This document shows, piece after piece, positions 60,079-64,000 of a DNA stretch of 64,000 bases. This DNA is from Candidatus Fervidifonticultor secundus. Its GTDB lineage: Bacteria; Sysuimicrobiota; Sysuimicrobiia; Sysuimicrobiales; Humicultoraceae. Within the stretch, counting starts at the first letter, position 1. Every line of letters starts with the position of its first letter. The position numbers and the translations under genes were made by a program. The notes under the pieces are model-generated. The model was not told where the DNA came from, did no database searches, and saw only the letters and a program-made list of their open reading frames with translations. Location: positions 64,001-128,000 of the forward strand of contig JAVKIP010000006.1 of NCBI GenBank assembly GCA_031459385.1, written 5' to 3'.

Positions 60079-60525
60079 ATGGTGGCGCTGATCGAGCTCA
60101 TCGTGCGCGCGGTCATCGCGACAGGCGACCGGATTCTCGTGGCCCGCAAGCCCGGCGCTGCCCACACCTTCCTCCCCGGCGGCCACGTCGAACCGGGGGA
60201 GCCGGCCGCGGCCGCGGTGCTGCGCGAGCTGCGCGAGGAACTGGGGATGACCGGCCGGGTCGAGCGGTTCCTGGGCGCCGTCGAACACGGGTGGAGGACC
60301 GCCGACGGAGCCGCCCATGAGCTGAACCTGCTCTTCCTGGTCACCGCCCCCGGCCTGGGGCTGGCCACCCCACCCGTGCCGCGGGAACCGCACCTGCAGT
60401 TCTTCTGGCACCCGCTCGACCGCCTGAACGACGCGCGGCTGGAGCCGTGGATCCTTCGAACGGTCCTCCCCGGCTGGCTGGCCTCCGACGGGCCGGGGTG
60501 GGCGAGCACCCTGGCCGTGCAATAA
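60079..60525 (+). CDS. NUDIX hydrolase
   Basis: Nudix box 'PGGHVEPGEPAAAAVLRELREELG'. Confidence 0.9.
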   Translation: MVALIELIVRAVIATGDRILVARKPGAAHTFLPGGHVEPGEPAAAAVLRELREELGMTGRVERFLGAVEHGWRTADGAAHELNLLFLVTAPGLGLATPPVPREPHLQFFWHPLDRLNDARLEPWILRTVLPGWLASDGPGWASTLAVQ

Positions 60526-60577
60526 ACTGGCCGCCCGGGCCCGTCTCTTGGGACAGGCAGCACCCTGGGGGGGACGC

Positions 60578-61176
60578 ATGGCCGAACTTTCGTCTGTACC
60601 CCGTACGGGCTTCGAGGACGTCGTCACGCCCCACCTCGACTACCTGTACGCCGTGGCCGTGCGGCTGTGCGGCGACCGGACGGCCGCCGAGGACCTCGTG
60701 CAGGAGGCGCTGTTGCGCGCATTCCGGGGCTTTGGAGGCCTGCGCAATCGGGACCGTCCCCGCCCGTGGTTGACGCGCATCTCACCCGAGTCTACTTCGA
60801 CCGCGTAGACGCCGCGACGCACGCGCCGGCGGTCGAGCCCGGCGACGACCGCTTCGATCTCTTCGACAAGATCGTCGAGGAAGACCCGTTCCCGTACTCC
60901 GACCGGGTGCACCTCGACTTCCTCGAGCTGTTCGACGACGCCCGCATCATCGAGGTCCTGCAGCGGGTGCACCCTCTGCACCGCGCGGCCATGATCCTCG
61001 CTTACGTCCATGAGTACAAGGCACGCGAGATCGCGGAGATGACCGGCCGGCCGTTGGGCACGGTGCTGTCCTGGCTGCACCGCGGTCGCCGCCAGCTGGA
61101 GCGCGAACTCTGGGAGTACGCGGAGCACCACCGGCTCCTCACGCCGCACCGGGAGGCTTCTCGTGATCAGCTGTAA
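60578..61176 (+). CDS. ECF sigma factor, frameshifted near 60781 (sequencing error or recent pseudogene)
   Basis: Region 2 'AEDLVQEALLRA..WLTRI' in one frame, 'LTRVYFD..EIAEMTGRPLGTVLSWLHRGR' (region 4) in another; adding one C (ATCTC to ATCCTC) restores it. Confidence 0.85.
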
Positions 61177-61402
61177 GGACGCCGTAGCACGGCTGTGGGC
61201 GTACCTCGACCGCAACCTCGGGCGGGTCGAGGAGCGCGAGATGGAAGAGCACCTCGGGCTGTGCCGCCACTGCTGCGGGGAGCTGGAGTTCGCCCGGCAA
61301 CTCCGCGAGCGGTTGCGGCAGGAGGGCCCGGCAGTGACGCTGGCCCCGGAGGTCCGCCGCAAGCTCGAGGCGTTCATCACGAACCTGGGAGGACAGCGAT
61401 GA
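61163..61402 (+). CDS. Zinc-finger (zf-HC2) anti-sigma factor
   Basis: 'C...LWAYLD...EEHLGLCRHC' HxxxCxxC motif; overlaps the sigma 3' end. Confidence 0.88.
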   Translation: MISCKDAVARLWAYLDRNLGRVEEREMEEHLGLCRHCCGELEFARQLRERLRQEGPAVTLAPEVRRKLEAFITNLGGQR

Positions 61403-62222
61403 GCGCCCACGTCCCCCACCCGGCGGTGCGCGCCACCGACGACCTGCTGGACCAGGAGGGGATCCGGGACCTCGTCCGGCAGGCCTACCGCGCGGTCATC
61501 GGGACCAGGACCAGCGTGGCCGAGCGCCTCTACACGCCGGAGCAGCTGCGCCTGCTGCCCCAGGGCGCCCTCGAGCAGGCGCTGGGCGTGGGCAACCCCG
61601 TGCGCGCGGCCGCGCTTTGCCCCGGCGAGGTCGTCGTCGATCTGGGCTGTGGCGGCGGGATCGACACGATCCTGGCCGCGCACGCGGTGGCCCCCGACGG
61701 CAGGGCGATCGGGCTGGACATGCTGCCGGAGATGCTGGCAGTGGCCGCTGCCAACGCCCGGGCCGCGGGCGTGACCAACGTCGAGTGGCTGCGGGGGAGA
61801 TCGAGGCGATCCCGCTGCCCGAGGCCAGCGTGGACGTGGCCATCAGCAACGGTGTCCTGAACCTCTCGCCGCGCAAGTCGCGGGCGTTCGCCGAGGTGTT
61901 CCGCATCCTGCGGCCGGGCGGTCGCATGGTGGTAGCGGACATCGTCGTCGACGAGGACCTGCCGCCGCAGGTGCTCACCAGCGCGGCGGCCTGGGCGGGC
62001 TGACTCTCGGGCGCCCTGGCGGAGCGTGTCTTCGTCAGCAAACTCCAGAAGATCGGGTTCACCGAGATCGCACGCGGCGAGGAGCTGCCCTTCGGCATAG
62101 ACGAGTGCGAGCAGTACCCGCTGTTCACCCCGGAGCTGATCGCGCTCATGCGCCGGCTCATCCCGCCGCAGCGGCAGCCGCACGTGGCGCGGTCGGTCAT
62201 CTTCGCGGCGCGGAAGCCGTAG
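61399..62222 (+). CDS. ArsM-like SAM methyltransferase, candidate selenoprotein (in-frame TGA 62001-62003; frameshift at the G-run 61793-61797)
   Basis: 'LGVGNP..PGEVVVDLGCGGGID..GLDM', 'EIEAIPL..SVDVAISNGVLNL', 'WAG*LSGAL'; coding frame continues 73 codons to TAG. Confidence 0.8.
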
Positions 62223-62283
62223 GAAAGGGTGCGCCGGGGCGCACCGGCGCCGGCGGATGCACCATCGGAGGGGCTGAGCGGTC

Positions 62284-62853
62284 ATGACCTGGGTGCGCAC
62301 GCTGGACGAGGACGAGGTTGCAGACGAGCTGCGGCCGCTCTACGAGGCCGAACTGGCGCGGCTGGGCTTCGTCATGGAGGCCACGAAAGCGCTCTCGCTG
62401 CGGCCGCGGCTGGCGGCGGCCCTGGAGACCTTCACGGCAGCAGTAAAACAGGAGTCGGCGCTGACGCCCCAGGAGCGTCGCCTGATCAGCCTGCTCGTCG
62501 CCCATCGCCTGCGGTCGACGTACTGCGTGCTGGTCTACGCCGTAGACGTCGAGCGCGACCTGGGCGGGCTGGCGCGCGTGCGAGCCGTGCTGCGCGACTA
62601 CCGCACCGCCGGCCTGACCCCGCGGGAGGTGGCGATCCTCGACTACGCCCTGGCGGCCGCCACCGGGCACCCCACCGCCGAGCACGTCGCCGGGCTGCGG
62701 GCTGCGGGACTGGACGACGGCGCCATCATCGACGTGGCGGTCTGGGCCAACCTGCGGGCCCTGCGCAGCCGGGTCTATGAGGCGCTGGGCGTCGAGACCG
62801 ACCCGTTCTTCCTTGAGCAGGCCGACCTGGTCGAGGCTGTCGCAGCGCGGTAG
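62284..62853 (+). CDS. AhpD/CMD-like peroxidase-related protein
   Basis: 'MTWVRTL', 'LSLRP', 'ERRLISLLVA..RSTYC', 'LTPREVAILDYA', 'LRAAGLDD'. Confidence 0.78.
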   Translation: MTWVRTLDEDEVADELRPLYEAELARLGFVMEATKALSLRPRLAAALETFTAAVKQESALTPQERRLISLLVAHRLRSTYCVLVYAVDVERDLGGLARVRAVLRDYRTAGLTPREVAILDYALAAATGHPTAEHVAGLRAAGLDDGAIIDVAVWANLRALRSRVYEALGVETDPFFLEQADLVEAVAAR

Positions 62854-62884
62854 AGAACGTCAGAGAGAACAGGGGGGATCTGCT

Positions 62885-63277
62885 ATGGCACTGTCACGCA
62901 GGCAGCTCCTGAAAGCCATCGGCGCCACGGCCGCCGGTGTCACCGCGGTCGAACTCGCCAGCGCCGAACTCGTCTCGCAGGCCCTGGCGCAGGTCCGCAC
63001 CGACACGCTCGCCGACCATGCCCTCGCCAACATCCCCGGTGTCACGCGGGTGACGCTGATCCAGGCGGTGCTCCCACCCGGGACCCGCGTCACCACCCCG
63101 GCGGGGACGACACTCTTCTGCTGGATGGTCTCGGGCCAGGCCTATCTCACCCTCGGCGGACAGACCAGACGGTACGGGGTGGGCGAGAGTTTCATCGTCC
63201 CCAAGGGCGCCGCGCGGATCGAGGGAAACGACGCGCGGGAAGACAACGTGCAGCTGGTCTTCTCGATCGCCCACTAG
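62885..63277 (+). CDS. Tat-exported small cupin-fold protein
   Basis: 'LSRRQLLK' signal; 'FCWMVSGQAYLTLGG..YGVGESFIVPKG'. Confidence 0.7.
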   Translation: MALSRRQLLKAIGATAAGVTAVELASAELVSQALAQVRTDTLADHALANIPGVTRVTLIQAVLPPGTRVTTPAGTTLFCWMVSGQAYLTLGGQTRRYGVGESFIVPKGAARIEGNDAREDNVQLVFSIAH

Positions 63278-63315
63278 GCGCGCGGGACGCGCACACCACC
63301 AGGGAGGTGACGGCT

Positions 63316-63918
63316 ATGGGGTACGAGCTGGAAGGCGCGCTGCTGGAAGCCTGCTCATGTGCAGCCGTGTGCCCCTGCTGGGTCGGGCAGGACCCCGACG
63401 GCGGGGCCTGCAACGGGCTCATCGCCTACCATTACGACCGCGGGCAGATCAACGGGGTCGACGTGGCGGGCCTGACCCTGGCCCTGGTCGTGCAGATTCC
63501 CGGGAACGTCCTCAAGGGCAACTGGAAGGCCGTGGTCTTCGTCGACAGCAGGGCCACGCCGCAGCAGAAGGAGGCTATCCTGGCGGCGCACACGGGGAAG
63601 CTTGGCGGACCGCTGGCCGACCTGGCACCCCTTGTGGGTGAGGTCCTCGGCGTCTACGACGCGCCCATCGACTTCAGCTTCCATGAGGGCAAGGGACGCA
63701 TCACGATCGGTGACGCGGTGACCAGCGAGATGGAGCCCCTGACGGACCTCCAGGGCCACCCCACGAAGCTCGTCGACAGCATCTTCTCGACCATCCCCGG
63801 CTCTGCGGCCTTCGTCGGCAGAGCGCCCGCGTTCCGGGCCGACGTCCCGCAGCACCGCATCCGATGGGAGTACAGCGGGCGCAACGCGGTGCTGGGGCCG
63901 TTCAGCTTCGCCGCCTGA
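63316..63918 (+). CDS. DUF1326 domain protein (Cys-rich, putative metal binding)
   Basis: 'LEACSCAAVCPCW..PDGGAC', 'VDVAGL', 'GNW..FVD.RAT'. Confidence 0.85.
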   Translation: MGYELEGALLEACSCAAVCPCWVGQDPDGGACNGLIAYHYDRGQINGVDVAGLTLALVVQIPGNVLKGNWKAVVFVDSRATPQQKEAILAAHTGKLGGPLADLAPLVGEVLGVYDAPIDFSFHEGKGRITIGDAVTSEMEPLTDLQGHPTKLVDSIFSTIPGSAAFVGRAPAFRADVPQHRIRWEYSGRNAVLGPFSFAA

Positions 63919-64000
63919 CCGCCGCCCGGGGCCTGCGCCATGATCGCGCCCTCCGCACGCCCGACGACGCCCGCTGGTACCGGCTGGCGCTGGGGGCCCT

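Follow-up and report, generated by a model that had tools for sequence, protein, structure and literature searches.

The stretch analysed here (the window) comprises 64,000 nucleotides (nt) of Candidatus Fervidifonticultor secundus (assembly GCA_031459385.1, contig JAVKIP010000006.1, positions 64,001 to 128,000 of the forward strand) and carries a gene for a methyltransferase related to the arsenite methyltransferase ArsM, the reading frame of which contains a TGA codon. As judged by comparison among relatives, the gene family is a real and conserved selenoprotein family of an already known kind, and its branch has an unusual active site with a lone selenocysteine (Sec). It is probable that in this conserved branch UGA is decoded as Sec, in the alignment column of Cys224 of ArsM, with the aid of a hairpin downstream of the codon, and that the copy in the window is itself broken, as part of an operon that has recently become a pseudogene. 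The genome of the window is designated G000, and G001 and G002 are its congeners. The parts of the gene are as follows.

61399 to 61797, + strand: N-terminal part of the ArsM-like methyltransferase, with GVGNP and the S-adenosylmethionine (SAM) motif DLGCGGG (translation; PF13847 and NF008823 matches)
61793 to 61797, + strand: run of five G, one base short compared with relatives, the site of the frameshift (alignment, tblastn, contigs of sequencing runs)
61794 to 62000, + strand: middle part of the methyltransferase (ISNGV ... AAAWAG), in the shifted frame (translation, tblastn)
62001 to 62003, + strand: TGA, assigned as the Sec codon of the family; UxxG motif, ArsM Cys224 column (alignment, conservation)
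62004 to 62222, + strand: C-terminal part, with the branch-specific extension (PFGxDxxxxYPLFTPELxxLMRxLIP) and a TAG stop (translation, comparison)
62016 to 62038, + strand: hairpin resembling a selenocysteine insertion sequence, with a 9-bp stem CUGGCGGAG/CUUCGUCAG and the loop CGUGU (RNAalifold, pair counts)

For the gene family, UGA is assigned to Sec because TGA is conserved, Cys forms occur in the same column, the Sec machinery of the genome is complete and a conserved hairpin lies downstream. A survey of 94 genomes of the phylum gave 35 matches at E ≤ 1e-28 in 34 genomes, 32 of them with TGA; when the codon was read directly at 35 loci, 32 carried TGA and three TGC (G087, G090 and G075). 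The TGC-bearing G087 and G090 belong to the genus of the TGA-bearing G039 and G093, and alternation of Sec and Cys is the usual pattern for a true Sec position. A search of 41 related genomes with the C-terminal part returned 20 best matches from 19 genomes, including G000, each with exactly one TGA. The 34 weaker matches in the same 41 genomes are paralogues that match over the first ~100 residues only; none contains TGA, and one has a single TAG. Both tallies include an unpublished genome (G019), which has a paralogue match and no TGA match. The full-length homologues in the protein database read WAGC in ten of ten cases. The 73 codons that follow TGA are conserved in the same frame at 78-94% amino acid identity in the main group and contain no start codon; over all loci the identity of the C-terminal part is 43-94%, with 43-54% in a distant group. 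TGA also serves as the ordinary stop codon of the adjoining anti-sigma gene. The tRNA-Sec of G000 scored 64.5 bits against RF01852 and was called SeC, with the anticodon tca, by ARAGORN; the sole further match above the cut-off was a tRNA-Ser. Genes for selB (367.6 bits, cut-off 242.25), selA (548.9 bits, cut-off 267.9) and selD (388.2 bits, cut-off 125; one TGA within the gene) are also present in G000. The genes for tRNA-Sec, selB and selA are clustered on contig C12 (C12:151486-157010) and selD lies on contig C1 (C1:104038-104961); the selD product of G000 is itself a selenoprotein (CAG-U-ASK). The original prediction, made from the letters of the window, had proposed that the UGA encodes Sec, and at the level of the family this holds; two of the checks it had named, for the Sec genes in the genome and for Cys versus TGA in this column among homologues, found the complete set of tRNA-Sec, selA, selB and selD and a TGA that is not unique to the assembly.

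The stem of the hairpin spans +15 to +37 (columns 16-38 counted from the U of UGA) and its loop begins 21 nt past UGA. RNAalifold applied to 13 main-group loci returned one helix, in which 98% of cells are paired; with the 3' arm slid by 1-3 columns, pairing falls to 26-64%. Eight or nine of the nine pairs are retained in all 21 readable Sec loci of the main group. The covariation of the stem consists of one compensatory pair (G-C to C-G) and three one-sided changes. Among the Cys forms, G087 retains eight pairs and G090 five of nine, the latter despite an unchanged peptide (LAERVFV). The distant group has a different stem of 7 bp with a GGA loop at +13 to +29, in which one pair occurs as U-A, G-C and G-U. 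The stem after the selD UGA of G000 resembles that of the methyltransferase in its 5' arm (CUGGCG) and in its loop (CGUGC). A small hairpin (GCGC...GCGU) had been put forward from the window as a possible, weak signal; it overlaps the conserved stem at 62016-62038, CUGGCGGAG-CGUGU-CUUCGUCAG, and is not identical with it.

Both halves of the protein match Methyltransf_31 and Methyltransf_11 (PF13847 and PF08241 in Pfam), and the best NCBIfam match is the arsenite methyltransferase model NF008823. The best phmmer match in the PDB is ArsM of Chlamydomonas (5evj, E 5e-30), and matches to the Cyanidioschyzon entries 4fr0 and 4kw7 were also obtained. In the PDB alignment, with C72, C174 and C224 counted along chain 4kw7, Val stands in the Cys72 column (G-C-G), where the C72A mutant structure 5eg5 shows Ala, Gly stands in the Cys174 column (ISNCV), and Sec falls on Cys224 of G-E-C-L-G-G-A-L. 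Val occupies the Cys72 column in 118 and Gly the Cys174 column in 117 of the 120 best database hits, and the pattern was not found in the remainder; the distant group has Leu or Met in the Cys72 column. The Cys set that binds As(III) in ArsM is accordingly incomplete, only the Cys224 column being kept, as U or C. As aligned here, the branch is one that retains a single arsenic-binding chalcogen of ArsM, and the original prediction was right to name the UGA as the sole active-site chalcogen left. The branch is without the N-terminal Cys-Cys insert and has a C-terminal extension of its own. Three full-length orthologues scored 224.6, 242.6 and 217.9 bits against NF008823 and did not reach its cut-off of 263. 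The AlphaFold model of a natural Cys form (P0003) has a mean pLDDT of 92.7, and the 12 best listed Foldseek matches of this model in the PDB are all ArsM or AS3MT, with TMq of 0.58-0.72. G000 also encodes a canonical ArsM paralogue at C16:29687-30478 (L048:1188-1979), with ACCDG, LGCGA, ISNCA and WTACLAGA and hence the full Cys set.

In the window, the gene begins with ATG at 61399, which is preceded by GGAGG, reaches TGA at 62001-62003 and ends with TAG at 62220-62222, all on the + strand. Translation across TGA reads ...AAAWAG-TGA-LSGALAERVFVSKLQKIGF...VIFAARKP and continues to the TAG. The original prediction had described one gene from 61399 to 62222 with GVGNP and ISNGV motifs and a normal C-terminus in frame with TGA; the positions of ATG, TGA and TAG, both motifs and the continuation to 62222 are borne out by translation, and the single frame is not. 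The span from 61399 to 62222 is 824 nt and cannot be a single frame, since this number is not a multiple of 3. The first 132-133 codons, which encode the N-terminal part, share the frame of 61399 (open reading frame (ORF) 61195..61860), and this frame meets TGA at 61858-61860. ISNGV, TGA and the C-terminus lie in another frame, that of ORF 61617..62003. The frame of 61399 translates as ...VTNVEWLRG and then as nonsense until TGA 61858-61860, and the frame of 61617 is nonsense upstream of ...GEIEAIPLPEASVDVAISNGV; the switch was located in the run cGGGGGa at 61793-61797. An uninterrupted frame from ATG 61399 to TAG 62222, TGA apart, does not occur in the window copy. GVGNP of one frame had thus been joined to ISNGV and TGA of another, and the frameshift was overlooked. 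The N-terminal part is 92% identical to that of G002 and 90% to that of G001.

In alignment with G001 and G002, G000 is one base short at 61793 (CTGCG-GGGGAG vs CTGCGCGGCGAG in the congeners), 204 nt upstream of UGA. It is also one base short at 60780 and at 61154, both inside the gene for an extracytoplasmic function (ECF) sigma factor, and the three 1-nt deletions are clustered within ~1 kb. In G001 and G002 the sigma gene is one intact ORF of 196 amino acids (aa) with both region 2 and region 4, and tblastn breaks the G002 ORF into two frames at ~60780 in G000. With both halves of the methyltransferase as tblastn queries, a one-base overlap in differing frames was obtained solely in G000, and at the loci of 19 relatives the halves abut in one frame. 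In the survey of the phylum, the N- and C-terminal parts are contiguous and in frame at 33 of 35 loci. The exceptions, G000 and G093, are both broken at homopolymers. The copy of G093 (L053, G093:C14:64540-65490) has a 1-nt deletion of its own in a C-run near codon 98 (GCG-CCGG vs GCGCCCGG in G039). Separate contigs were available from four public hot-spring metagenome runs (X1-X4), which may be the assembly's own source. Contigs of X1 matched 60500-62021, and those of X2, X3 and X4 matched 61709-62021 or 61270-62021, in every case with 0 differences and 0 gaps. The X1-X4 contigs all break at 62015-62021, and short alternative contigs span 61982-62042, one of them with 6 differences; this suggests a second, related strain that shares the conserved stretch. 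When 49 ORFs of G002 (≥ 120 aa, ≥ 75% identity, ~17,000 residues) were compared with contig C56 only, two were frame-split in G000, namely the sigma factor and the methyltransferase, and since only these two of 49 are split the genome is not riddled with insertion or deletion errors. The ratio of nonsynonymous to synonymous substitution rates (dN/dS) between G000 and G002 is 0.107, which implies purifying selection through nearly all of the history of the gene, so that any loss would be recent. The splits of the sigma factor and the methyltransferase look like recent local decay, and the window copy is most likely a fresh pseudogenisation of the operon, in which the frameshift probably amounts to loss of function.

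Several results weigh against this account or parts of it. The evidence of X1-X4 consists of contigs and not of reads, and is compatible with a minor intact allele or with a homopolymer error specific to the platform; each of the three deletions is in a short homopolymer or next to one; and dN/dS gives no sign of relaxed selection. As to the hairpin, the 63-nt fold is no more stable than shuffled sequences (z +1.02), and the covariation is thin, with 27-32 of 500 shuffles reaching the observed score or percentage paired. An intact and working gene, in which the bases missing at 61793-61797 and in the sigma gene would be sequencing or consensus errors or an artefact of the dominant allele, is regarded as unlikely. 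It would agree with the position of the deletions at homopolymers (G5; CC to C; a G-run), with the long-term purifying selection indicated by dN/dS, with the nature of the genome, a metagenome-assembled genome (MAG) of 59 contigs and 5.5% contamination, and with the homopolymer deletion in the copy of G093, likewise a MAG. It is opposed by the agreement among the per-run contigs of four runs on 60500-62021, by contigs of up to 177 kb in X1-X4, which imply accurate reads, and by the confinement of both frame-split ORFs among the 49 compared to an operon of 1.7 kb. The same deletion might instead be bridged by a programmed -1 slip of tRNA-Gly on the G-run (CGG GGG A), restoring the conserved ...WLRGEIE...; a slip from GGG 61795-61797 to GGG 61794-61796 would retain full pairing and yield the conserved peptide. 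This is very improbable, however, as every other locus with contiguous N- and C-terminal parts has a single frame across the stretch, the congeners have CGC GGC GAG without a slippery run, and the frameshift of the sigma gene is at CAT-CTC, which is not slippery; a stimulatory structure was not noticed and none was searched for.

The reading of TGA as a plain stop, with a methyltransferase of ~200 aa as the product and the downstream frame as a relic or a separate gene, agrees with the annotation of most of the best database entries (110 of 120), which end in ...WAG. It is hardly credible in view of the 73 codons past TGA, conserved in frame at 78-94% in the main group and lacking a start codon. 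The TGC forms are moreover continuous proteins, the column is that of the active-site Cys224 of ArsM, and the Sec machinery is complete. A Sec codon in the family and a recently broken copy in the window are retained as the preferred interpretation.

The methyltransferase gene is accompanied by the following genes in the window.

60548 to 60781, + strand: N-terminal part of the ECF sigma factor (sigma-70 region 2), cut by the 1-nt deletion at ~60780 (Pfam PF04542, 1.3e-12)
60781 to 61176, + strand: C-terminal part of the ECF sigma factor (region 4), in another frame; the second 1-nt deletion at ~61154 alters the tail (PF08281, 1.7e-11)
61163 to 61402, + strand: zf-HC2 anti-sigma factor of the zinc-associated anti-sigma (ZAS) type (HxxxCxxC), 79 aa, intact; its TGA stop overlaps the ATG of the methyltransferase (PF13490, 2.5e-08)
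62284 to 62853, + strand: AhpD-like protein of the CMD family with one Cys (STYC; R-S-T-Y-C-V-L-V-Y) (PF02627, 5.7e-08; TIGR01926, 81.5 bits vs a cut-off of 81.8)
62777 to 63277, + strand: small cupin with a twin-arginine translocation (TAT) signal (PF07883, PF05899 and PF10518, all weak and below Pfam gathering scores)
63307 to 63918, + strand: DUF1326 protein with an N-terminal Cys cluster, CSCxxxCPC (PF07040, 1.2e-53)

In the main group, the methyltransferase gene comes after an ECF sigma factor gene and a zf-HC2 anti-sigma gene (HxxxCxxC). A sigma gene was found upstream of the methyltransferase in 10 relatives among those scanned, and the same zf-HC2 gene of 78-79 aa in G001, G036 and G003, which are all three of the relatives where that ORF was scanned. 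The CMD-family gene adjoins the methyltransferase in G002, G025, G007 and G004, besides G000, and a small cupin is also among the recurrent genes downstream or close by. AhpD-type motifs usually have two Cys and a His; the single Cys (STYC) of the protein at 62284 to 62853 would replace this motif, standing in for a second AhpD-type Cys. Most of the AhpD-like gene of G000 and G002 falls within ~520 nt that are missing from G001 (L024 vs window 62272-62800), and the genus can therefore do without this neighbour. In the genomes with Cys forms, an OsmC-like neighbour is found instead of the AhpD-like one. The gene for DUF1326 is followed by that for PpoB2 (PF09948, 'copper chaperone', membrane) in G001 and G003, and PpoB2 is also present in G035. 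The pair of DUF1326 and PpoB2 recurs downstream of the methyltransferase operon (window 63307-64000, L024:2265-3422 and L034:1969-3397).

The novelty that had been claimed for the gene was overstated, as a Sec-containing ArsM with UxxG is already a known selenoprotein and three ArsM-like selenoprotein models exist in NCBIfam. Table 1 of a 2026 review (PMC13188914) places the Sec-containing arsenite S-adenosylmethyltransferase (UxxG) under 'experimentally verified' prokaryotic selenoproteins, with credit to Fomenko et al. 2007 (Science 315:387), and the enzyme is also named in PMC2398784 and PMC9312934. The same review lists three ArsM-like families with multiple Sec, credited to Haft & Tolstoy 2025: NF041537, an arsenite methyltransferase/AhpD domain selenoprotein; NF041536, an ArsM/DUF2284 selenoprotein; and NF047649, a methyltransferase/UXPK-star double selenoprotein. 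The main text of the BSepDB paper (PMC13326102) does not mention methyltransferase. The branch described here resembles the catalogued Sec-ArsM (PRK11873/NF008823 type) in its fold, in Sec at the Cys224 column and in the arrest of gene callers at TGA, and its motif U-L-S-G fits UxxG and therefore marks the same Sec position. It differs from the NF008823 type in its score (218-243 bits vs the cut-off of 263), in Val and Gly at the Cys72 and Cys174 columns, in the missing Cys-Cys insert and in the C-terminal extension. With NF041537, NF041536 and NF047649 it shares an ArsM-like domain with a UxxG Sec. Two main-group orthologues fall far below the cut-offs of these models, with 181-183 of 510 bits for NF041537, 160-164 of 575 for NF041536 and 164-174 of 460 for NF047649, and a distant orthologue is lower still. 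Unlike these three families, the branch has a single Sec instead of two or three, and its proteins, 273-274 aa long, carry no additional domain. In NF041537 the AhpD-type partner forms part of the same protein; in the window, a CMD-family gene of its own lies directly downstream, and its product gave no NF041537 match and contains Cys but no CxxU motif. Likeness to CmArsM and CrArsM (PDB 4FR0, 4FS8, 6CX6 and 5EVJ) and to human AS3MT (8XT7), at E 5e-30 and TMq up to 0.72, lies in the SAM-binding core and in the Cys224 column, occupied by Sec or Cys. These enzymes bind As(III) by three ligands, two of which are missing from the branch; its protein has 274 aa as against 320-387 and is without the ArsM C-terminal domain. 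MddH, MddM1 and MddM2 (PMC12904073) are S-methyltransferases for H2S and methanethiol of 204-210 aa, which belong to the UbiG or UbiE families and are not called ArsM-like in the sections consulted. They are small class I SAM enzymes of the cytosol, act in the detoxification of a soft nucleophile and are induced by oxidative stress, and they offer a functional analogy only. MddM1 and MddM2 were considered as possible kin of the Actinomycetota Cys forms and dropped, as they are described there as of the UbiG/UbiE type with 204-210 aa, no homology test standing behind this.

The product of an intact copy would be a class I SAM-dependent ArsM-like methyltransferase in which UGA at the Cys224 column is decoded as Sec, aided by the hairpin 15-37 nt downstream. 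Its active site would hold a single selenolate beside SAM, replaced by a thiolate in the Cys forms, in the place where ArsM binds arsenic; this site is proposed because Val stands at Cys72, Gly at Cys174 and the N-terminal Cys-Cys insert is missing. One ligand could hardly hold As(III) in the manner of ArsM, and species with one free valence could be held, possibly sulfane sulfur or selenium as a Se-S or Se-Se adduct, or a dialkyl- or alkyl-metal(loid). The substrate may thus be one that needs only a single chalcogen ligand, and the suggestion in the original prediction that it may not be arsenite is likewise conjectural. The ECF sigma/ZAS pair, together with the thiol-redox and copper-related neighbours, points to a stress-induced detoxifying methylation. 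The Actinomycetota have Cys forms of the branch, 58-60% identical to the orthologue of G025 that served as query, which carry a cupin_2 domain (P0100 and P0119) or a TusA-like sulfur-carrier domain (P0113 and P0114) as a C-terminal fusion. A tentative further proposal is that the branch is a distinct selenoenzyme of the ArsM fold and not an arsenite methyltransferase, in which the three-thiol As(III) site would have been given up and a lone selenolate, under a thiol-sensing ECF sigma/ZAS switch, would act on a substrate bound through one chalcogen bond. Candidate substrates may be sulfane sulfur or selenium, bound as a Se-S or Se-Se adduct (giving methanethiol or methaneselenol), or a monovalent organometal(loid), for instance dimethylarsenite or methylmercury. 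This proposal leans on the Actinomycetota Cys forms fused to TusA-like or cupin domains and on the AhpD-like, OsmC-like, DUF1326 and PpoB2 neighbours.

The branch lies below every NCBIfam cut-off, and its named database entries carry labels such as 'methyltransferase domain-containing protein [Armatimonadota bacterium]', 'SAM-dependent methyltransferase' and 'arsenite methyltransferase'. Of the best 120 cluster representatives from the protein database, 110 are no longer than 225 aa, and all of these end in ...WAG exactly at the UGA; in public databases the branch is cut short at 200-201 residues. As these representatives stop at UGA, counts of the selenoproteome would be too low for this hot-spring phylum. 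A crude search of the whole genome for TGA codons in frame, flanked on both sides by open frames rich in G and C at third codon positions, gave 637 candidates and was dropped as useless in a genome of high G+C content. The window copy would represent a selenoprotein operon caught in the middle of its decay, and the lesson drawn from it is that an in-frame TGA should not be interpreted before the rest of the frame has been checked. With its one arsenic ligand, the branch would be a natural system in which the action of a lone Sec or Cys next to SAM could be examined cleanly, and its natural Cys forms, such as P0003, could be expressed without Sec machinery.

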